A DNA stretch of 64,000 bases from Candidatus Poseidoniaceae archaeon (GTDB lineage Archaea > Thermoplasmatota > Poseidoniia > Poseidoniales > Poseidoniaceae), in contig CBFIJH010000005.1 in the NCBI GenBank assembly GCA_965662895.1, positions 1-64,000 on the forward strand. The letters are read 5' to 3'. This document shows positions 4,276-50,757 of the stretch, in pieces. The number at the start of each line of letters is the position of its first letter. The first letter of the stretch is position 1. The position numbers were made by a program, and so were the translations under genes. The notes beneath the pieces are model-generated. The model was given only the letters and a program-made list of their open reading frames with translations. It made no database searches and had not been told where the DNA came from.

Positions 4276-5424
4276 ATGATGGAGCTTCACATACTTGGGA
4301 CTGCGTCGGCGCGACCGACGTCGACACGAAGTGTGAGTGGAAGTGTGTTTTCATGTCAAGAAGGCATCGTGGTTCTTGATGCTGGAGAGGGATTCCAGAT
4401 TCGTTATTCCAAACAACGCAGTCAATTAAAACGCCAAGCAGAACCTTCTCTATTACGCCCGAATAGAATCGTAGCAGTGGCTTTGACTCACGGCCATTTG
4501 GATCACACCTGGGGGCTGCTGCCGTTCTTGCAGACGCTTTCACTTGATGGCCGGCAACAACCACTCATTGTCTATGGGCCAACATCCTCGGAAATTCTTG
4601 ATGAACTTGCGACTAACGGCGTCACGGCTTTGCTACCAAAGGATACACCTTCGGCTGAATTGTTGAATCAGTATCGTGCGTGGTTTGACCTTGGAGGTAC
4701 ATCAACGCATCTTGGCTACAAAGTGCGATGGTTGTTGGGCAATCCCCAATCTGGGCGCTGGGTTGAGTTTGTCGATGATGCATCTGGATTGATTTGGCAT
4801 GATTCCATGCCCCAACCTGATGCATTCAAAGAGTTCAGAATGGATTCAATTCCAACGCAACATAGCGTTCCTTCATGCGCATGGCAACTTTCTCGAAAAG
4901 AGCGAAAAGGGTCTTTTGATCGCGACAAAGCAACGCTAACTGGATTGTCGCAAGAAGAACGAAAGATGCTCTCACAAGGAATCGATCTTGAACGAGCGGA
5001 TGGAGAACTTCTACGCGCTTCCAACTTCCGAGGCCCTTCAAAACCAGCTGTAAGCATGATTGTCTCTGGCGATACGGCAGAACAAGCAATACATCCAATT
5101 GCTCCTGTTACCGTTCTCATCCATGAGGCAACGTTCCTCAATGAATCGGCAGACAAAGCGGATGCACATCTTCACAGTACCGCTGCAGGAGCTGCACGTA
5201 CAGCTTTACAATGCAAAGCCGAACATCTCATCCTTACCCATTTTTCAGCACGTCTCCGTGATGTTGGGGAAGCGATTGAGGAAGCAAGAGAGATACTGGG
5301 CGAAACCTGCGGATTGGATGCAGCCTCAGATGGAGACCGAGTACGTATTGGTGAAAACGGAAACGCATTCTTCCTCAAAGCATCGCAGAGTGGCTGGGTT
5401 CAGCACAAACTGTCGCATCATTGA
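4276..5424 (+). CDS. rnz: ribonuclease Z (tRNA 3' endonuclease, metallo-beta-lactamase fold)
   Basis: LGTASARPT, DAGEG, THGHLDH, SGDT, IHEATF, HLHST, LTHFSAR. Confidence 0.93.
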   Translation: MMELHILGTASARPTSTRSVSGSVFSCQEGIVVLDAGEGFQIRYSKQRSQLKRQAEPSLLRPNRIVAVALTHGHLDHTWGLLPFLQTLSLDGRQQPLIVYGPTSSEILDELATNGVTALLPKDTPSAELLNQYRAWFDLGGTSTHLGYKVRWLLGNPQSGRWVEFVDDASGLIWHDSMPQPDAFKEFRMDSIPTQHSVPSCAWQLSRKERKGSFDRDKATLTGLSQEERKMLSQGIDLERADGELLRASNFRGPSKPAVSMIVSGDTAEQAIHPIAPVTVLIHEATFLNESADKADAHLHSTAAGAARTALQCKAEHLILTHFSARLRDVGEAIEEAREILGETCGLDAASDGDRVRIGENGNAFFLKASQSGWVQHKLSHH

Positions 5425-5449: not shown

Positions 5450-7921
5450 ATGCATTCGAGGAAAGTCGTTGCAGTTCTCGCTCTCGTCATCTGTATGTCA
5501 CTTGCACCGTTGGTTTCGGGCACATCAGCAAGGGCAGTGCCTTCTTGCAGTACAGAGTCCTCCTCAACGTTTGCGTCACAAGTCCCTGTTGACGATGGGG
5601 AATGCGTTGAATTGTCGCTTGGATTGCTCACGCCGGGTGATGTTTACGAAATTACAGTTCTCGTTATTGATGACGCTCTCGATGTTCTTGTTTTTGATGA
5701 AGCAGGTTTGCAGCCGTATCTTTTGGGACAATCCTATCGTTCAGCCTATCAGCAAATACCTTCAACAGAGTTTGCAAATGGTTCCTATGAATTCCATTGG
5801 AAGGTTCCACTGTCCATTTCAGAAAAATCCTGGACCATCGTCGTCGATAATCTCGCACACGATGGTGACCAAGGAAACGGCGATCAAGGAGGAAACATTG
5901 GTCGCGTTTCAATCTCAATAACAAAACTCAACGATGGTCCATGGACGTCGTACCATGACCTCCTTGGAATCATTCCAGGGGGGTATTTGACCTTGCTTGA
6001 AGGTGATGAGTTACGACTTGAGGAAGGAACAGCAGTGTCTGTTACCGCATGGTCGCTCGAAGGCTTTGGTGATGTATATCTCCAATCGGAAGCCATGAAT
6101 GCAAACTACCTGTCTGGCCAGTCCAATGTTGCGCTCGCGGGTGCTTCTTTGCTCGGAGTCGATGGAACGGCATCGTTCAACTGGGTCGTTCCTGAAGCCT
6201 TTGCGGACCAGCCGCTCAAACTCGTGGTTGATAACACCAACAACCCGGATGGTCAGGGCGACGGATCAACCACTCTTCGAATAACCATTCGCGTTGAATT
6301 AACACCGGTCATGAAGGCTATGTTTGTTGCGGAAAATCAAACGGTTGCCCTCAACACGGCTCTCAATTTTGATGCGTCATCTTCACCCAACAACCTTGGA
6401 CAAATCGATCAATACGTTTGGGATTTTGACGCATCCGTCGACGCTAATAACGATGGTGACGCGACAAACGATGTTGATGCAGTGGGCATGATGGCCTCGA
6501 CTTCATGGGCAAGTCCAGGTGAAAAAACAGTCTCGCTTACCGTTTCCAGTGCACTTGGTTTTGACCGATTGCAAAGCAACATAACCGTTGTTGATGAGAC
6601 CAAACCCATCGCTCGAATAACAGGGTCGTCAACTTCATCAGCAATACCAATTCAAGGAGGGTGGCGAATTGAGCACGGAGAAACAGTCACACTTTCGTGT
6701 GCAACGAGTACCGATAATCACCAAATTGCTGCCTGTTCGTGGTCGATTGACGGAAGTCCCTTTGGTCAACAGACGACTGCTTCTTTCAATTGGTCTGACA
6801 TCGGAACGCATGAAGCTGGTTTGATTGTTCTTGATGCGAGTGGAAACAGTCAATCCGCCACTGCGCAGATTCTCGTGACGGATTCAACGGTCCCCCGTCT
6901 CAATGAAGCACTGCTTGATGCACTTGAAAACCAAGCTATTGAAGGCCAAACGGTCGCATTCAGCGTGACCGCTTTTGACGGATACGATGCGAATACGGAC
7001 TTACGATTCCACTGGGATGTGAATCCGCTTGAGGACAGCGATGCGAATGGAAACTTGTTGGACGATCCAGACTACATTGGTTCACGTACGGATATTGTTT
7101 TCGATTCCCCCGGTACGAAGACAGTCATTGTCACCGTTTTCGATAAATCGAACAACAGCGATAGTCACACCTTTTCAGTGATTGTTAGCGAAGCTGAAAC
7201 TGAAGAAACCGATTATGCCATTTTTGTGGTGGTTATCTTTGCTGGCCTAGTTACGATGTCCATCGCTCTAATTGGTTATCGACGTTGGCAGTCGAGCATT
7301 GCGTTGAAACTTCTCACGGATCGAGGCTTGCCCGAAAATGAAGCGAGATCTCACATGGCGATGGTGAAACAAACCCAACGTCTTCCTCTATTTGCAAAAG
7401 CGATTCAACTCGCAGGTCTTGCTTCAGGCGGTGAAGTTGTATCGCAAGAAGAGGAGGAGAAGGCTAGAAAAGAGGCTGAACTTCAATCGATTTATGGTTC
7501 TGCGACAGGTTCAGAAATACCTCCACAAGCTCAATTTGCCCCTCAAATGCAGCTTTCCCAAGCCTCGAGCCAAGCAGCAAATGAAGCAGCAGCGCTGTTC
7601 TTTGATGATGAACCACAGGCACCGAAATCGGTTCCAACAAAAGATGGACTTGACGAATTGCTCGAACTGAATGCTCCAAAGCCAGAAGCAAATCCTCCAC
7701 CTCCTGGAATCGAATTACCCAAACCAATCGACTTACCTCCTTTGGAAAACGAAGCATCTGAGGCACCGAAGGAACCCCCTGTTTCATCTGAAAACACCAA
7801 CCTTCTCCGAGGTATGTGTTCCAGTTGTTCCTTGGAATTCCAAGTTCCAATGCCAGTCGGTGTCAAGGAAGCGATTGTTGTTTGCCCATCCTGCTCTTCT
7901 GAGCAACTGTTCCAACGTTGA
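5450..7921 (+). CDS. PKD-domain surface protein with TM anchor, Pro/Glu-rich cytoplasmic linker and C-terminal Zn ribbon
   Basis: signal peptide from ATG 5450; FDASSS...YVWDFD and FHWD PKD-like repeats; TM; CSSC...CPSC. Confidence 0.8.
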   Translation: MHSRKVVAVLALVICMSLAPLVSGTSARAVPSCSTESSSTFASQVPVDDGECVELSLGLLTPGDVYEITVLVIDDALDVLVFDEAGLQPYLLGQSYRSAYQQIPSTEFANGSYEFHWKVPLSISEKSWTIVVDNLAHDGDQGNGDQGGNIGRVSISITKLNDGPWTSYHDLLGIIPGGYLTLLEGDELRLEEGTAVSVTAWSLEGFGDVYLQSEAMNANYLSGQSNVALAGASLLGVDGTASFNWVVPEAFADQPLKLVVDNTNNPDGQGDGSTTLRITIRVELTPVMKAMFVAENQTVALNTALNFDASSSPNNLGQIDQYVWDFDASVDANNDGDATNDVDAVGMMASTSWASPGEKTVSLTVSSALGFDRLQSNITVVDETKPIARITGSSTSSAIPIQGGWRIEHGETVTLSCATSTDNHQIAACSWSIDGSPFGQQTTASFNWSDIGTHEAGLIVLDASGNSQSATAQILVTDSTVPRLNEALLDALENQAIEGQTVAFSVTAFDGYDANTDLRFHWDVNPLEDSDANGNLLDDPDYIGSRTDIVFDSPGTKTVIVTVFDKSNNSDSHTFSVIVSEAETEETDYAIFVVVIFAGLVTMSIALIGYRRWQSSIALKLLTDRGLPENEARSHMAMVKQTQRLPLFAKAIQLAGLASGGEVVSQEEEEKARKEAELQSIYGSATGSEIPPQAQFAPQMQLSQASSQAANEAAALFFDDEPQAPKSVPTKDGLDELLELNAPKPEANPPPPGIELPKPIDLPPLENEASEAPKEPPVSSENTNLLRGMCSSCSLEFQVPMPVGVKEAIVVCPSCSSEQLFQR

Positions 7922-7996
7922 ATGAGTCGTCAACAACCGTTCTCTGTTTGCACAATTCGGGGATGGGTTCAGATATGAGTTCTCCAACCTCCAATC

Positions 7997-10900
7997 ATGG
8001 TCGAGGAAGCGATTCGTTTGATTCGGCCTGGGCTGCATCAACCAAAACGTGGACGATTGGCGGTCTTTCTGGTCATGGTCCTTCTTATCCCCGTGTTCCA
8101 GCCCGTCCAAGCAGATGTCTCGGTTGAGAGGGATGATTTTGGTCTGATGGAGAAACTTTCAGATCTTATGGAACTCCAAGAATCTAGTGACGATACCGTC
8201 ATTGCAGCAGGCTCTTCGGCTTCTTCTCTTGCTTTGGTCGAAGCAGCAAAGCGAGAGAGTCGTGAAGGCGATCCCCTGAACGATTCAACGGAATATCTGA
8301 GCCAGACACAACTCAGAGATACGTCACCTCCTGAGCCTGAACATCCTCGCCCGTATGAGATTCTTCTTGACACCAGCACACAGCCTGAAGGCTGGCCGAA
8401 CAACCTTGTTCAAACGCTCTTTTCACTCGAATCATGGGACATCAATGACCCTTTGGCAGTTGGAATTAACACCTACGCATTGTACATTAATTTCTCTAGC
8501 AGGGATAATGGTCCACAATACGAGGCTTGGGATTATGGAACGTTTACAGGAGAATTATTCGTTGGGACGGACCTTGTCTTGTTTGAGAATTACATCGATA
8601 TCGATGGCGATTCTGTCGACGATGTCTCCATCTCGTTGACCGTTCTTGGACTGTTAACGCTGAACGAAGGATTTGGCTTTGAACCGCCATTGAATCCTCT
8701 CAATCCTCTCAACATTCCCGATACCTTGTGGCTACGCCCGACCTTCCAATGGAAAATTGATTATCTGAATGAGAACGATCCGATTTGGGACGAACTCGCT
8801 CACATGGAGGTCTCATTGCTCAAAGGGCTGGCTTTTGATTCAGCAATTCAAGACTCAGAATCCTATGCTCTCGTGCTTGATACGCGACTTACGCAACCGC
8901 CAAACAATTTCAGAGTTGAAGTAGGTATCCAAGAATTCCGATTCAGCATTTCCAACACAATCGGCAATGTTTTTGGTATTTTGACCGATTTTTTGACTGG
9001 AGGTGCATTACCAGCAAATGCGCTCTCACTCACATCGGTTTCTGCCCCTTATTCAATTTCGATACGGAACTCAAATTCGAATTCACAAAACAGACAGACT
9101 GAATGCGATACTTCGTACTATGATGTATTCAACGATCACAGTACCAAAAGTGAGGAACACAAATGTGGTTACGGAGTGGGTATTGGATTCATTCAATTCG
9201 ATCAGATCGACCAAGTCGGACAAACAGAAATCATCGATATGGGGTACATCGATGTCGGCTTCCATCCCGAGTATGGCTCAAATCTCTTGCCGGAAGAGGT
9301 TGATCTTGTCCTACGCAACGATAATCTCGGCGACAACACCTTTGACACGGTTGAACTGTACAGCAATATTGGTGCGGATTTGTGGCTGCATTATTTTGAA
9401 GATCGGAGCAATACACTCGAAGCTGGGACGTTCGGAAACACAACCGATTCACAACTTTGGATTCGTGGAATTCCATCAGGAACACTGCCTCAAGAAGAAA
9501 TCAATGCGATTTTTACGATGATTGGAGAAGCACCGGAAAGCACGAACTTGCCAGGAGATATTCCCGATCGGCTCTCATTCATCCTCGCCATCAAGAATTT
9601 CTCAGGAGATGCAACCGCAAACCAGAACGATTTGACATTGCCTGTCAATCCTGCAGCACCTCCTTCAACGCTCATTCTGATCGCTGGGACGGAACGAATC
9701 AAATCCCTCTCCTACAATTCAACTCTCAAGCGAGGTGGATTTGCAAACGATGTAAGTTCCCTCACCATTCAGGTAGAAAATCTTCCTGAGGTCCTTATCC
9801 TCAAGGGTAGTTTCCAACTGTCTTCAACAGGCCTCTCACGTGTGAACTTCAACAACCCTGACTTGAATACAATTGCACAACTTCTCGACAATGCTTTGCT
9901 AACGCTTGTTGAGATTGTTCTTGATTTGGGCTCGATTCTCAACACGCTTCCCGATCTGATTGTTGGAACTGCTGGTAGTTCAGGCGGAGAACTTGAAGTT
10001 CTCTGTTTGAGTCAAGTCCGGCAAACGTGGTCGAACGGTGAAGTTCGGGCACCGAGTAGCCTCGGAAAGATTTCCATGGCCATTGGTAGCAGTGATCATC
10101 CGTGGTTGACGGATTCCGATCACATTCTCCTTTCCCAAGATACGGAAATTGAGAAGATTGATGGGAGGGATGGTCCAGTCGAACCACTTGTTCCGGTGGC
10201 GATGAGCATTCGCGTTTCGAACATTTCAAGGGTGTATCAGTCCTACGATCCTGTAACCAGTGTCCGTGCGCTCGAGTTGCAGGGGCAACAATCTGGCGCC
10301 CTTCTTGTCGGTCATATTCGTCATTCAGGTACCAATTTTGCCAATGTCACCGCACAGTCGGCCATGTTTTCAAATCGGCCCGCAGATTTGAGCGTGGTTC
10401 AAGATCCGGAAAAATTGGTCTACACTGCAAGCGAACCGATTGGAACGATTACGTACGGTGGCGAACAAGGCCTTCAACGCAATGCGATACGACTTGAGGG
10501 GTTGCCTGCTCAATTCCAATTAAACATCGGTGATGACATTGGATTCCAAGCACAAACGCCGATTACGTCGATCATGGTTCAAATGACCAATGCAACGACG
10601 CCACTGACAATGAATGGTGACCACTTCCGCTTCTGGGTTGATGCTGACACGGCTCAGGCATCGCTGAGTGCGAAGATTTCCAATGTACAATCTGTGCAAC
10701 GTTATTCGCCAATCGATGCGAATTCCACTGGACCTGAAGGGAGCGCTAGGTATTCGCTCCAACGTCAAGTATCCTCTCCGTTCAGCATTTCGATGGAGGA
10801 TGTGAGCAATTACGACGACCCATTCCTCGGTCTCAATGGTATGATGCGTCTTGAGCCATTGCCTGCAAACCTTGAGATTCTCCTTCCGAGTGATATGGAT

Positions 10901-46124: not shown

Positions 46125-46240
46125 GACAAAATAGAATTGTACGTCAGTGTATAATTTGTCTGAAACACTGTTTTCGATCCAAGAATTGAACAAAACGTAG
46201 GAGCGTATGATTCATGAACGGTTTGCCAGTCGTTGGCAGT

Positions 46241-48316
46241 ATGAAGGCTGTCGAAAACGTCGCAATCATCGGTGCAGGAAACATGGGTTCTGGAATTGCA
46301 CAGAAAAGTGCACAAGAAGGATTCAACGTACAAATGGTCGATCGAGAACCTCAGTATGTTGCTCGTGGTCGTTCCATCATCGAGAACTTCCTCCAAGAAG
46401 CTATTGAGCGTCGGATCTTTTCACAAGACGAAGTTGATGCCACACTCGGCCGAATTGCAGATGTTGTCGGAACAGAAAACACTGCTGCGGAAACGGACCT
46501 TGTGATCGAGGCAGTGTTCGAAGATTTTGACATCAAAACATCCGTTTTTTCAACACTCGATGAAGTCTGCGATGAGGGGACCATTCTTGCATCAAACACT
46601 TCCTCTCTTTCTGTTAATGCCCTTGCTGAAGCAACGGGGCGACCAGATCGCTTTGTTGGCCTGCATTTCTTTTATCATCCAGCGAAGAATCGGTTGATAG
46701 AGGTCATTCCCGCAGAAACCACTTCCAAAGATACGCTTGATCGAACCGTTCAGTATTGTCGAACGCTTGGAAAAGTTGTGATTGTATGCAAGGATCGACC
46801 AGGATTCGTCGTCAACCGATTTTTTGTTCCATGGTTGAATGAAGCATGCTTGCTGCTTCAAGAAGGCGTTGCAACGGCAGCACAAATCGATGCTATTTCA
46901 TGCAAAGCGTTCCGCATCGGCCTCGGTCCATTTGGTTTGATGAACCTCACAGGTCCTCCAATTGCTTTGCATTCGACCGATTACCTTGCTGAACAGCTCA
47001 ATACGCCACGATACAATGGGGCACAGAACCTTCGCAATCTCGTTGCGGAGAATGCAATGTGGCCAATTGAAGATGAATCTGAATACACAGAGGACCAGTA
47101 TACAACAGTCTCTGAGCGTCTTTTGGGCGTTGTCTTCGGAGTTGCAGCACAAATTGTTGAGGAAGGCATCTGTTCGATGGAAGATGTTGACCGAGGTGCG
47201 AAGGTTGGTCTGCGATGGGCACGAGGTCCATTCGAGATGATGAATCGAATTGGTGTTGATGAAGCCTACCGAATGGCACAAGCGTACCAATCGCTCGCTG
47301 GTGATGCGTGGACCTTACCCTCTTTCTTTGAGAACCAATCTGATGCTTCACGAAACTGGGAATTCTCCTACGTCGATTCCTCTGTTGAAGACGGAATCGC
47401 AACCATCACCATCAATCGTCCTGAAGCTATGAATGCTCTGAACGAAGTCGTCGTGGCCCAACTTACGGAAGCGGTGAAAGTGGCAAACTCCGACAGTAAT
47501 GTTTCGACCATTGTTCTCGATGGTGCAGGTAAAGCCTTCGTTGCAGGTGCGGATGTGAAATTCTTTGTCGATAAGATCCGTTCTGATGACATTCCAGACA
47601 TCGAAACCTTCACCGAGAATGGTCACGTTCTGCTTGCAGCGCTTGAGGATTCAACGAAGACGACGATTGCGCTAACCACAGGGCTTGCCCTTGGTGGAGG
47701 ATTGGAACTTGCGCTTGCTTGCGACTATCGAATTGGAACCCGACGCACACAGTTCAGGTTCCCAGAGACCAGCATTGGTATTTATCCAGCGCTTGGTGGG
47801 ACCCAACGCCCTGCTAGAATAGCGGGTCGTGAACTCGGACGGTGGGCCGTTCTTGCTGGAAACTTCATGAATGCAGAAACGGCCACTGACCTTGGTCTTG
47901 TTACGCACCTTGTGAACATCAACGATGTCCCAAATTGCATCCAAGACCTTCATGCATCAGGAAAACCGGAAAATAAGTATCCTGGCAAACCAATGAATGA
48001 AAACAGTCCAGTGGTCAAGTTTGCAAAGAAATTCTTCTCAGATGGAAACATGACTGCCTTGCTTGCAGGAAGTTGCCCAGATGGCTTTGATGCAGAGGAT
48101 AAGACGGTAGCACGTCAGCTGAAATCTCTCAAATTTACTGCTCCAATCGGATTAGCGATGGCAAGTGAGCGAATCGATGCGACAGCATCGATGTCCCTCG
48201 ATGAGGGTTTACAACTCGAATTGCAAGGTTTGGACCGGATCTTCTCAACCGAGGACGCACTCGAAGGCCTCAGTGCCTTGATTGAAGGACGTAGAGCAAC
48301 CTACAAGAACGCCTAA
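46241..48316 (+). CDS. 3-hydroxyacyl-CoA dehydrogenase / enoyl-CoA hydratase fusion (archaeal domain order)
   Basis: IIGAGNMGSGIA, IEAVFE, ASNTSSL, GLHFF; C-terminal NRPEAMNAL, AFVAGAD, GGGLELALACD. Confidence 0.95.
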   Translation: MKAVENVAIIGAGNMGSGIAQKSAQEGFNVQMVDREPQYVARGRSIIENFLQEAIERRIFSQDEVDATLGRIADVVGTENTAAETDLVIEAVFEDFDIKTSVFSTLDEVCDEGTILASNTSSLSVNALAEATGRPDRFVGLHFFYHPAKNRLIEVIPAETTSKDTLDRTVQYCRTLGKVVIVCKDRPGFVVNRFFVPWLNEACLLLQEGVATAAQIDAISCKAFRIGLGPFGLMNLTGPPIALHSTDYLAEQLNTPRYNGAQNLRNLVAENAMWPIEDESEYTEDQYTTVSERLLGVVFGVAAQIVEEGICSMEDVDRGAKVGLRWARGPFEMMNRIGVDEAYRMAQAYQSLAGDAWTLPSFFENQSDASRNWEFSYVDSSVEDGIATITINRPEAMNALNEVVVAQLTEAVKVANSDSNVSTIVLDGAGKAFVAGADVKFFVDKIRSDDIPDIETFTENGHVLLAALEDSTKTTIALTTGLALGGGLELALACDYRIGTRRTQFRFPETSIGIYPALGGTQRPARIAGRELGRWAVLAGNFMNAETATDLGLVTHLVNINDVPNCIQDLHASGKPENKYPGKPMNENSPVVKFAKKFFSDGNMTALLAGSCPDGFDAEDKTVARQLKSLKFTAPIGLAMASERIDATASMSLDEGLQLELQGLDRIFSTEDALEGLSALIEGRRATYKNA

Positions 48317-48555
48317 ACCCAACACGATTGCATCTTTTTGATGGATTCAACGATTTTCTCCAAATCGATGGATTCTTGTTGCTGTTGTGCAAAAAGTATA
48401 CGATTTTCAACAGCTTCAATAAGTTCGTTGCCCGGTATCTCGCCCAACATATCTGTCAGAACCTCCTTCAAGGATTTTGATTGACCTCGAAGAATAGCGA
48501 TATGCGCTTTCAATTCTTCTTCATCGTCTCGTGGCGCTCGCACATTGGACGTCAA
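48313..48555 (-). CDS. small helical hypothetical protein (~80 aa)
   Basis: TTG start overlapping the JAB stop, GAGGTGA SD. Confidence 0.65.
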   Translation of the reverse strand: MTSNVRAPRDDEEELKAHIAILRGQSKSLKEVLTDMLGEIPGNELIEAVENRILFAQQQQESIDLEKIVESIKKMQSCWV

Positions 48556-49094
48556 ACAATCACCTCGATTGGTTCGGATTGGCGTTGTGCGTACCACTGA
48601 TCCCAAGGAACAACTTCTTCCTCTGTCCAGTGCTTTAACGGTCCTTCTTGTCCAATCGATTGGATGCCTTCAGGACCAATGTTTCGACTCTGCTTGATAC
48701 CAGGTGCACCGAGAACGAGTGCAGAAGTAAGGATTCCTTGTGCAATGGCAAGGCTGTTTTTGTCGGTACCACTCCAATACGCTTGGAATCCTGGATGGGT
48801 GTGAACCCATACTCTGAATGGAGCCATCATTCCGACCGGAGGTCGAAGCGGGACTCGGCCAGGCGAGCCCCAATCGATCTGAATCTCTCCATTTGCATCG
48901 ATGAGCACAGAGGTTTCAAGTCCAGCAATCAAGGAGAGATTGTACACCAAATCCCATCGTCCGTGTTGAGCAGCGCTTCGTTGGACATCGAGGACATCAT
49001 CGGATTCAACGGCTTGGGCTTCAGCCTGGATGCATGCTCTCATCCACTGTTCGTAGGTAATGCCTATGGATGCAAGATTCATCACTGGAATCAT
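48552..49094 (-). CDS. JAB/MPN+ (JAMM) metallo-isopeptidase-like protein
   Basis: GLETSVL (Glu) ... HTHPGFQAYWSGTD = HxHx7SxxD. Confidence 0.8.
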   Translation of the reverse strand: MIPVMNLASIGITYEQWMRACIQAEAQAVESDDVLDVQRSAAQHGRWDLVYNLSLIAGLETSVLIDANGEIQIDWGSPGRVPLRPPVGMMAPFRVWVHTHPGFQAYWSGTDKNSLAIAQGILTSALVLGAPGIKQSRNIGPEGIQSIGQEGPLKHWTEEEVVPWDQWYAQRQSEPIEVIV

Positions 49095-49720
49095 GCCTTC
49101 ACCTCAGGAAACTTGAGTTCACCAAACACGATACTCGACATTCGTTCTCGAAGTGGTGGTTGATTTCTCAGTTGTCCAACAAGCCATGTCGCAGCAGCAG
49201 CAGCAGCGTTCACAAATCCGAATTGGATGTTTCCAGCATCGATTGCACCTTTGATTTGACAACTCGCAGGCTCATGGTCCGGCGTCATCATCCGAACGAG
49301 GTTTTCATCCGATTCGTTCGTGAAATAAACATGCCCATCGCCGGTTGATCGCAAGTCAATCCAGGGCACGTTTGTTGCGTGAACAAGCCTTCGAGGCTCT
49401 GGTCTGTCAACGCCGATGATGATGTAATCATAGCCTTCCAATTGTTCCGCTGTTCTCAGATTTTCGGTTTGAGAATGGCAATGGACGTTTGAAAGAGTAG
49501 CAAATTTAGAAACAAGTGAAGAAGTCTTGAATTTCCCAACATCGTTTTGGGAGAATCGTTGGTGCCCGAGATTCGATTCTTCAACTGTATCTCCATCCAT
49601 GATTGTAATGGAGCATTTTTGATTTATTTTTTCGAGCGCTGGAACAATTAAATCGAAGGCGAATCCTCCAATTCCACCTGCTCCAACAATCAATATTTTC
49701 GGCATAGGCTCTGCTGTCAT
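49091..49720 (-). CDS. ThiF/E1-like adenylyltransferase
   Basis: IVGAGGIGG, MDGDTVEESNLGHQ, GKFK, GVD; no CxxC Zn motifs; exact start uncertain (49705-49756). Confidence 0.85.
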   Translation of the reverse strand: MTAEPMPKILIVGAGGIGGFAFDLIVPALEKINQKCSITIMDGDTVEESNLGHQRFSQNDVGKFKTSSLVSKFATLSNVHCHSQTENLRTAEQLEGYDYIIIGVDRPEPRRLVHATNVPWIDLRSTGDGHVYFTNESDENLVRMMTPDHEPASCQIKGAIDAGNIQFGFVNAAAAAATWLVGQLRNQPPLRERMSSIVFGELKFPEVKA

Positions 49721-49752
49721 GTTCATATCGAACATCAACAGTATATGAACGC

Positions 49753-50757
49753 TCAAGTTTGAATGATTGGGAGCTTTTTGACAGGGGGTGCAATACCCAA
49801 ATCCTCTGGGAAGTAAAGTTCTGCTTCAGGGATTGGAATTGGAACAATCTCTCGACCGATCAAAGCAACACGACTCGGGCGACTTTCTGAAAGGACCTCT
49901 CGGCTGACTTGAGGTGCAAGTTCGTTTGAGAACGAAAGAATGTCTTCGTGGCTTGGCATATTTTCCATGGAGAGGTTTTCTCGGCTATGACCAACATAGA
50001 CGTACCCCTTTGCTTCAATAAAGTCAGGATCGGCGCGGTTGTCGAGTTCTGCAAACTCATTGATGTGTGTTGATGACATATTGACGCCTTTCATGAGTGT
50101 GTGTCGGCAAACAATTCTCGTGTCAAGACTTGGCAGCAAGTCGATGGTTTTCTCGAATTGATCCCAAGCACCACTGTTCCACTTTGGTCGACATACATCA
50201 TCGAAGACTTGCTTGTTCGGCGCGTCAACAGAGACGTAGAGTTGCGTAGGAAGGGTATCAAGATTCTCGAGAACCTTCGGAAGCGTCCCATTGGTGACGA
50301 GCATTGTTGTCATCCCATGTTTGTGGCACAAGTCCATGTACTCCGCAAGTCGGGTGTAAAGCGTAGGTTCACCGTTGAGTGAGATTGCGACATGCTTCGG
50401 GTCTTGGGCTTCGAGGAATTTTTCTCTTGGAACCTTGTCGTTCCCACCAAAACCTGAGAGGAGTCGTCGTTGGGCACGTACGCTTTCATAGAGAAGCTCG
50501 AGTGGATCTTGATCCGTGAGCTCGAGGGTGTCCATGTGCGGTTCTCGCCAGCAGTATGTGCAGGCGAGATTGCATTGATCAACAACCGGTGACATTTGCA
50601 TGCACGTGTGGCTCTTTACACCGTAGAACGTACCTTTGTAACACGCTCGATCGCGGAGTAATGATTCTTTGGTCCAGTGACAGGTTTTGACTCCACCGTG
50701 TTCACCAACGATGTGATATCGTTGCTTCTGTAGTTTCGCTTTGAGTGCGGGATCCAT
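49753..50757 (-). CDS. taw1: 4-demethylwyosine synthase (radical SAM)
   Basis: VKTCHWTK, CYKGTFYG, SHTCMQMSP, CNLACTYCWR, HVAISLNGEPT, EAKGY. Confidence 0.96.
   Translation of the reverse strand: MDPALKAKLQKQRYHIVGEHGGVKTCHWTKESLLRDRACYKGTFYGVKSHTCMQMSPVVDQCNLACTYCWREPHMDTLELTDQDPLELLYESVRAQRRLLSGFGGNDKVPREKFLEAQDPKHVAISLNGEPTLYTRLAEYMDLCHKHGMTTMLVTNGTLPKVLENLDTLPTQLYVSVDAPNKQVFDDVCRPKWNSGAWDQFEKTIDLLPSLDTRIVCRHTLMKGVNMSSTHINEFAELDNRADPDFIEAKGYVYVGHSRENLSMENMPSHEDILSFSNELAPQVSREVLSESRPSRVALIGREIVPIPIPEAELYFPEDLGIAPPVKKLPIIQT

Follow-up and report, generated by a model that had tools for sequence, protein, structure and literature searches.

The window analysed here is a stretch of 64,000 nucleotides (nt) from a Candidatus Poseidoniaceae archaeon and forms part of contig C5 of a 1.86 Mb genome in 26 contigs (the genome under study is labelled G000; C plus a number denotes a contig, an L number a locus, and any other G number the genome of a relative). 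Between the tRNA-modification gene taw1 (49753-50757, minus strand; TIGR03972, 369 bits against a cut-off of 318) and a convergent fadB-like gene (46214-48316, plus strand) lie three minus-strand genes. They encode an E1-like (ThiF-fold) adenylating enzyme of 209 amino acids (aa) at 49091-49720, a JAMM/JAB zinc metallopeptidase of 180 aa with the motif E...HxHx7SxxD at 48552-49094, and a small helical protein of 80 aa, read from a TTG codon and ending in SCWV, at 48313-48555. A preliminary description of this DNA had proposed that the three genes are coupled by overlaps, and this is borne out: the E1 stop and JAB start share an ATGA (49091-49094), the JAB stop and small-protein start share a TTGA (48552-48555), and all three open reading frames (ORFs) run on the minus strand. 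A longer E1 frame could begin at TTG 49756, overlapping the taw1 stop; we take ATG 49720 as the start because it gives 209 aa, the length at which most E1 relatives are called (among the 120 gene calls listed). Judged from sequence comparisons, the trio most likely constitutes the enzyme core of a ubiquitin-like system distributed across marine group II archaea (Poseidoniales).

The E1-like protein matches the Pfam ThiF family (PF00899) at 57.7 bits, where the cut-off is 28.1. The GxGGIG motif, D42, N50, H53, Q54, K65, D105, R110 and the triplet S153-C154-Q155 are invariant in all 15 relatives aligned, which bears out the candidate cysteine previously pointed to within the sequence EPASCQ. MoeB/ThiF/UbaA-type E1 enzymes carry two zinc-binding CxxC motifs in their C-terminal part. 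This feature is missing here, as had been noted: neither the 209-aa protein nor the alignment of 15 rows contains a CxxC, and the enzyme is a single domain without a rhodanese domain. It reaches no equivalog cut-off in NCBIfam, where the best match, PRTRC_ThiF (TIGR03736; E 7.9e-16, 58.1 bits against a cut-off of 144.75), covers profile positions 13-126 of 245 and only the N-terminal half of the E1. In PADLOC the Rossmann half matches E1-E2 proteins (Cap2), though only weakly. When the E1 profile was compared with the PDB, Uba1, MccB, Uba6, NAE, Uba4, UBA5, MoeB, ThiF, Cap2 and TcdA proved about equidistant (E 3e-12 to 1e-6), with the Rossmann half alone aligning; MccB was among the best (E 3.8e-12), and TcdA/CsdL (E 1.2e-6, Rossmann half) was weaker than Uba1, MccB and Uba4. 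A grouping with canonical UbaA or TcdA was named in the preliminary description as something that would count against its interpretation. The E1 reaches none of the canonical cut-offs: with UbaA (NCBIfam NF047750) it scores 25.7 bits, where 450 are required, over residues 20-126 only, and TcdA appears only as the PDB match just given. Being about equally far from these E1-type proteins, the enzyme is, on these profile distances, a separate E1-like clade.

The peptidase carries HTHPGFQAYWSGTD, and its predicted JAMM active site (E60, H98, H100, S108 and D111) is invariant in 10/10 aligned relatives, so that the motif reported earlier is indeed complete. Its match to Pfam Prok-JAB (PF14464) is restricted to the motif stretch and falls below the cut-off of 25 (16.4 bits, E 0.0088). 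The family is small, with 152 clusters at E <= 0.001 when 1.84 billion representatives were searched by profile; ten of the more distant clusters bear no taxon names. Neither the JAB nor the small protein has a match in NCBIfam, PHROGs or PADLOC. The pairing of this peptidase with an E1-like enzyme supports the earlier view of the two as a ubiquitin-like module.

The three genes remain linked in relatives. The order taw1-E1-JAB-small-fadB is kept in 19/20 same-genus loci; in the 20th (L009) the stretch begins within E1, and taw1 is therefore off it. Over aligned stretches of these same-genus loci the trio is 71-94% identical, against 88-98% for the flanking taw1 and fadB. At the family level we took 80 loci from named records of metagenome-assembled genomes (MAGs): E1-JAB followed by convergent fadB was present in 79/80, and the small protein, detected by profile, lay downstream of JAB in 79/80. 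In a second family E1 and JAB are linked in 9/9 loci and fused into one protein of 409-422 aa in three of these nine; the small protein also follows such fused genes. Conservation of the E1-JAB linkage is far beyond chance. The link to taw1 is of another kind. The gene touches E1 in same-genus loci only, lies 1.8-4.8 kb upstream or beyond the flank in the other family-level loci, and is absent from all nine E1-JAB loci of the second family. The suggestion of a connection to tRNA modification through taw1 is thus not upheld, the adjacency being genus-specific, and the position of the trio beside taw1 reflects synteny rather than function. Of the best 80 loci in GTDB genomes, every one is a Poseidoniales-type record, two of them under bacterial labels. 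These two (L042, a Salipiger bermudensis MAG, and L046, a Rhodobiaceae bacterium MAG) contain the Poseidoniales E1-JAB-small-fadB block with a JAB 87% identical, beside taw1 in the case of L042, and their labels probably reflect binning error.

A promoter of the trio's own had also been guessed from a TTCATA box 23 nt before ATG 49720. The position of this box was verified (49749-49744), and it falls within a TATA-like box, GTTCATATAC (49741-49750, minus strand), approximately 25 nt upstream of the ATG. AT-rich boxes with comparable spacing to the E1 start occur both within the genus and beyond it (TTGATATAC, TTCAAATAC, GTATATATTG, CTTTATATG and others). Conservation of a TATA-like box about 25 nt upstream of E1, in other genera as well, fits a separate promoter for the trio, and we regard the box as the candidate promoter of a leaderless E1-JAB-small transcript. 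A small metatranscriptome held 5% of the sampled words, and its two contigs cover only taw1 (50267-50608).

There is no ubiquitin-like protein (Ubl) or E2 gene within the local operon, in agreement with the preliminary description, which had offered two options for the modifier: the small protein itself, or a protein encoded elsewhere. A Ubl with Gly-Gly (GG) ends argues for the second. In a relative (L026), a 73-aa ORF ending in GLIGGC lies two genes upstream of E1. Searching this ORF against G000 returned three tandem matches on contig C2, where a gene labelled hypothetical in the sources (C2:80556-81176, minus strand) encodes a 206-aa protein of three head-to-tail units of about 68 aa, hereafter the tri-Ubl precursor. 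The units are 38-40% identical to one another and end in MVGG, IVGG and LVGG, with a single Ile as a cap after the last GG. Among 26 homologues of the precursor the ends of the first and third repeats, INPGMVGG and RPLVGG, are invariant (26/26), and the cap varies (I, L, V, F or IDLV). An AlphaFold2 model of the 206-aa protein (pLDDT 82.4) consists of three beta-grasp units of bb-a-bb-b topology, with low confidence only at the GG linkers, and in Foldseek it comes closest to linear tetra- and tri-ubiquitin, ISG15 and FAT10 (E down to 2.5e-8, probability 1.00). As modelled, the protein qualifies as a ubiquitin-like beta-grasp modifier. A 55-aa ORF of the CxxC...CxxC zinc-ribbon type lies 47 nt downstream of it (C2:80342-80509, minus strand), and an RFC-like P-loop gene comes next. 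Such a Ubl and zinc-ribbon pair recalls the ubiquitin-ribosomal protein fusions of eukaryotes.

Three lines of evidence tie the Ubl to the E1-JAB pair encoded in the window. The first is phyletic: in 301 sampled Poseidoniales genomes, JAB was found in 169 and the Ubl in 162, with both in 154, JAB only in 15, Ubl only in eight and neither in 124. In genera where the distribution is patchy, the same listed genomes are positive for JAB and for Ubl (7/22, 3/11, 6/14, 7/8, 1/18 and 1/17). The second is adjacency: E1-JAB is directly preceded, on the same strand, by a single-unit Ubl in L024, L027, L028, L029, L119, L138, G149, G160, G229, G242 and G235, and in L026 one gene, encoding a Cys-containing domain described below, separates the Ubl from E1. 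Five of six single-unit Ubls examined end in GG plus one or two residues (GGC, GGN, GGSQ, GGFY, GGLY), so that a trimming peptidase would be needed. The third is a control. G000 also has a MoeZ-like E1 with a rhodanese domain and one ThiS/MoaD protein, which suggests a separate canonical pair. This canonical E1 is near-universal (291/301 genomes), and is present in 17/17, 8/8 and 9/9 genomes of genera that are nearly or wholly without the Ubl; it therefore does not explain the patchy distribution of the Ubl. Taking phyletic pattern, adjacency and control together, the Ubl belongs with the minimal E1-JAB pair, and the option of a modifier encoded elsewhere in the genome is the one supported: a GG-ended beta-grasp Ubl co-occurs with the trio and adjoins E1-JAB in other genera.

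Two observations concern the canonical pair itself. In seven listed same-genus genomes (e.g., G016:C56, G013:C93 and G009:C2) the match to the MoeZ-like E1 contains an in-frame TGA, the open frame being 390 aa compared with 441; the true start is probably downstream of this upstream stop. A second weak JAB-like match on C5 (76750-76899, minus strand, outside the window; a 251-aa frame scoring 23.4 bits against Prok-JAB, cut-off 25) may be the peptidase of the ThiS/MoeZ pair.

The other option for the modifier was that the small helical protein is itself the tag, its C-terminus adenylated by the E1 and trimmed by JAB, in the manner of MccB and MccA or of Cap2 and its CD-NTase in CBASS. The 80-aa length and the SCWV ending without Gly-Gly were confirmed. 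Its coupling to JAB, its presence in 79/80 family loci and its position after fused E1-JAB genes all agree with such a role, as does the fact that E1-like enzymes can adenylate C-termini that are not Ubls; MccB is among the best PDB matches of this E1 profile (E 3.8e-12). However, the C-terminus is conserved in neither sequence nor length (SCWV, KWA, NEHV, EAQA, QEMA or QESC, never GG), none of the residues is invariant among 34 aligned members, the protein is absent from the Ubl-E1-JAB loci L026 and L119 of one genus, and a genuine GG-ended Ubl both co-occurs with the enzymes and adjoins them. We thus consider it very improbable that the small protein is the modifier, and the proposal has been abandoned in favour of the Ubl: the small protein is not the tag and is probably a conserved accessory subunit, adaptor or regulator. 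Its AlphaFold2 model (pLDDT 87.8) has four helices. A Foldseek search of this model against the PDB returned no match at E <= 0.001, and the wide VIA-align comparison gave a best Z of 4.1 with no informative fold match. A ribbon-helix-helix fold, considered from a beta - helix - GxS - helix pattern, was dropped on these two results.

Further parts appear to travel with the Ubl and the E1-JAB pair. Several proteins share a Cys-containing domain with the pattern V.G.SG..Y.I ... ICI ... GD ... L.L.DD, which we term the 'ICI..GD' domain. It is present in proteins flanking the Ubl in L026 and L119, and, in other genera, in two zinc-finger proteins of 570-640 aa next to the cassette; one family of genera has it within a few kb of E1-JAB. 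G000 encodes a 755-aa 'ICI..GD' zinc-finger protein (C6:97971-100253, minus strand; L120:3969-6236) and a 214-aa 'ICI..GD' protein (C10:30897-31547, plus strand; L139:3907-4551). The family occurs in 176/301 genomes; 'ICI..GD', JAB and Ubl are all present in 152, all missing from 118 and present in part in 31, a distribution in which the domain parallels the Ubl system. For 6/6 members Pfam holds nothing relevant at E <= 10, all that came back from a PDB profile search were repeat artefacts (designed 'Cake' propellers), and the ESM Atlas, which holds no structure for the domain, gave a best feature score of 0.80. The motif bears what we take to be a likeness to the UBC catalytic motif, one that the PDB profile and Pfam searches do not confirm, and a role for the domain as an E2/E3-like component is a conjecture.

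A divergent zinc-ribbon protein of the TFIIB type (325-365 aa) recurs next to the Ubl cassette or its Cys-domain proteins (L026:5498-6517, L134:8076-9059, L135:7407-8456, L136:7469-8446). In compact cassettes it comes after the small gene, and in G000 it adjoins the 755-aa gene (C6, L120:1934-3028, plus strand). Among six such proteins, three score 30-34 bits against the TFIIB zinc-ribbon model (cut-off 29), one scores 23 and two have no match. The protein is possibly a target or regulator of the Ubl system. The trio had been called a stripped-down system, which is doubtful, since the Cys-domain family and the TFIIB-type protein travel with it. Two genomes, each from a different family, also have an AAA-family ATPase (PF00004; 467-469 aa) within the Ubl-E1-JAB cluster or next to it (L026:4070-5473 in G057, E 2.6e-19; L137:4399-5808 in G235, E 2e-23).

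To account for these observations, we propose the following scheme. The JAMM peptidase would cut after the Gly-Gly sites of the tri-Ubl precursor, releasing monomers and removing the cap. The E1, whose ATP-site residues are conserved, would bind ATP and adenylate the exposed C-terminal glycine of the Ubl, and the invariant Cys154 would then receive the Ubl as a thioester. From there the Ubl may be transferred onto target-protein lysines, whether without an intermediary, in the manner of archaeal sampylation, or by way of the co-occurring Cys-containing zinc-finger proteins, and the JAMM peptidase would probably also strip the tag from its targets. We hold it probable, with fairly good confidence, that the trio serves to activate and trim the tandem Ubl in a protein-tagging module, and are less confident of conjugation as such.

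Several points weigh against this interpretation. Internal GG cleavage, adenylation, thioester formation and conjugation are all inferred. The arginine of the canonical SNLxRQ motif is a histidine in this E1. The Ubl has no significant match to PDB sequences or in Pfam, ThiS/MoaD (PF02597) coming nearest at 15.0 bits and E 0.037 (cut-off 22.5). In one subgroup of tri-Ubl homologues the second repeat ends in AG rather than GG, and it follows that not every junction need be cut. No UBC-type E2 (PF00179) was found in the genome at E up to 1. Finally, 23/301 genomes hold only one of JAB and Ubl, which could reflect MAG incompleteness (completeness 73-96%) or be real, and the co-occurrence counts come from related genomes, so that a Fisher test overstates their independence.

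The same enzymes could instead serve a sulfur carrier, the E1 giving a Ubl thiocarboxylate that delivers sulfur to a tRNA base or cofactor while JAB merely exposes the GG. Sets of E1, Ubl and JAB are known in sulfur transfer, as in CysO/Mec+ and QbsE/QbsD, and Ubl/E1/JAB operons of types 4a-d are discussed in the available text of PMC1779556. The conserved cysteine of the E1 could hold a persulfide, and taw1, adjacent in the same orientation in 19/20 same-genus loci, gives a hint of tRNA modification. Nevertheless, taw1 does not adjoin the trio beyond the genus, and a TATA-like box of its own precedes the trio. The E1 lacks a rhodanese domain, in a genome that already has a MoeZ-type rhodanese E1 and a ThiS/MoaD protein, and the canonical E1 is near-universal whereas the Ubl system is patchy. 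Tandem precursors, and carriage on viral contigs beside a chaperonin and a TFIIB-like gene (see below), also suit a protein tag better than they would a cofactor pathway. Considering this, a sulfur carrier seems improbable, and activation and trimming of a tandem Ubl for protein tagging is preferred.

Comparison with known systems helps to place this tagging module. In function it comes nearest to archaeal sampylation. Its gene design is most like that of eukaryotic polyubiquitin and of the bacterial '6E' polyUbl operons (now named Bub), and PRTRC gives the best profile match. For each of the named prokaryotic families, defining features that were tested are missing from the trio system. In sampylation, as it operates in Haloferax volcanii (SAMP1-3, UbaA and HvJAMM1), a beta-grasp GG modifier is served by a single E1 without a canonical E2, a JAMM peptidase carries out trimming and removal, and the components may be unlinked. 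The system described here shares with it an archaeal GG beta-grasp modifier, a lone E1-like enzyme, a JAMM peptidase and parts that can lie apart in the genome. It departs from it in an E1 of 209 aa that is far from UbaA (25.7/450 bits) and has no CxxC or rhodanese domain, and in a Ubl whose family is distinct, scoring below the ThiS cut-off, and which is produced as a tandem precursor. There are also extra conserved partners (small helical, Cys-domain zinc-finger and TFIIB-like proteins), and G000 additionally keeps a MoeZ-like E1 and a ThiS/MoaD protein. SAMP-modified TBP is degraded by proteasomes, according to the available text of PMC4895103.

For Bub, the available text of Iyer et al. 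2006 (PMC1779556), Ye et al. 2024 (PMC11601596) and Gong et al. 2024 (PMC11601603) describes a serine E2, a DUF6527 (BubE) serine protease, a JAB that was shown to cut the precursor after a conserved glycine, and a sporadic distribution. Use of a JAB to cut a precursor after glycine (predicted in our case) and sporadic distribution are common to both. On the descriptions of Bub in those texts, however, the differences are considerable. The Bub JAB is fused N-terminal to the E1, whereas here E1 precedes JAB in every fusion seen and in separate genes; the crossover loop of the Bub E1 has no cysteine and oxyesters are formed, whereas here Cys154 is invariant; Bub has a serine E2, and no UBC E2 (PF00179) was found in G000; and the cut site described for Bub is the last glycine of a multi-domain Ubl only, whereas here every repeat ends in GG. 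The Ubl of the present system also has no Pfam match to any polyUbl family. Bil differs in having a UBC-type E2 (BilB) and a large IAD-AAD-CYS E1, compared with no PF00179 match and a single-domain 209-aa E1 here.

Eukaryotic polyubiquitin genes (UBB, UBC, UBI4) provide the likeness in architecture, in that head-to-tail units ending in GG are followed by a short cap and the AlphaFold2 model is nearest to linear poly-ubiquitin. Unlike the near-identical repeats of those genes, the repeats here are 38-40% identical, and they have no detectable sequence relation to ubiquitin. Eukaryotic polyubiquitin is processed by cysteine deubiquitinases (DUBs), whereas the predicted processor here is a JAMM peptidase. 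The PRTRC cassette, or operon type 6d, comprises a Ubl, a JAB, E1-like and E2-like proteins and an alpha-helical protein in the available text of PMC1779556. To that extent it resembles our set of Ubl, JAB, E1, alpha-helical protein and Cys-containing protein, and PRTRC_ThiF is the best NCBIfam match. The match nonetheless stays at 58.1 bits against a cut-off of 144.75 and covers the N-terminal half only, the JAB and small protein have no NCBIfam match, no ParB gene was seen here, and an E2-like nature of the Cys-domain proteins is conjectural.

Few archaea of the surface ocean are as abundant as the Poseidoniales, which are uncultured, so that their cell biology is read from genomes alone. 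No description of this Ubl system was found in the open-access full-text literature, subscription-only papers and supplements being outside that scope. What the available text of Grau-Bove et al. (PMC4327156) lists for a single-cell genome of marine group II is limited to a UCH DUB and RING domains. The protein families of the system all fall below or outside current Pfam and NCBIfam models, and the present analysis turns genes annotated as 'ThiF family' or 'hypothetical' into a multi-gene tagging system that can be tested. Its components are small and look soluble, which makes in vitro work feasible without a cultured host. The tandem Ubl precursor represents a second, independent case of a polyubiquitin-type gene design outside eukaryotes.

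That viral contigs carry related gene sets suggests a virus-host dimension. In IMG/VR the E1 profile has 226 relatives, 28-36% identical over nearly their full length. The 80 of these 226 loci that were kept were examined by profile for JAB, Ubl and the Cys domain: 40 hold E1, JAB and Ubl, 30 hold E1 and JAB, nine hold E1 and Ubl, and one holds E1 alone, with weak Cys-domain matches in 31. Direct searches of viral contigs with the fused E1-JAB profile and with the Ubl profile gave no matches in either case. Two of the loci, L152 and L142, are of low guanine-cytosine content (33-37%). L152 carries a Cpn60/TCP1 chaperonin, a class II ribonucleotide reductase and a weak TFIIB-like zinc-ribbon protein (4324-5217), and the Ubl of L142 ends in IVGG followed by QE. 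We infer that these contigs come from viruses of marine group II archaea.

Such carriage raises the question of whether the same chemistry belongs to a mobile virus-host conflict module, either antiviral tagging as in Bil or a viral takeover kit, rather than to housekeeping. The 226 viral E1 relatives, most of the 80 kept having JAB and/or Ubl, lend weight to this, as do the patchy distribution within genera (7/22, 3/11, 5/24, 1/18 and 1/17) and the compact cassettes that one family of genera carries. In bacteria, operons of Ubl, E1, E2 and JAB (Bil, Bub and CBASS type II) are tied to antiphage immunity in the available text of PMC11601596. In its own family, however, the trio is nearly universal (17/18, 41/49 and 40/43) and occupies a constant place on the chromosome, flanked by core genes, with convergent fadB in 79/80 loci. 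No defence genes were seen beside it, and the PADLOC matches are confined to weak ones with Cap2 in the E1 Rossmann half, the JAB and small protein having none. A conflict module is on balance less likely than not, though far from implausible.

The archaeal and viral sets might also represent one shared tagging system, in which a polyubiquitin-style precursor is activated by a minimal Cys-bearing E1, the 'ICI..GD' proteins act as E2/E3-like ligases and the TFIIB-type factor is a target or regulator. We put this forward as a speculation of rather low probability; if true, it would imply a contest between virus and host over transcription or proteostasis. With the JAB profile, viral contigs yielded a single distant JAB-then-E1 pair (L118, IMG/VR, 7767-9316), a 301-aa JAB followed by a 220-aa E1-like gene; distant from the archaeal pair, it likely represents a different phage Ubl system.

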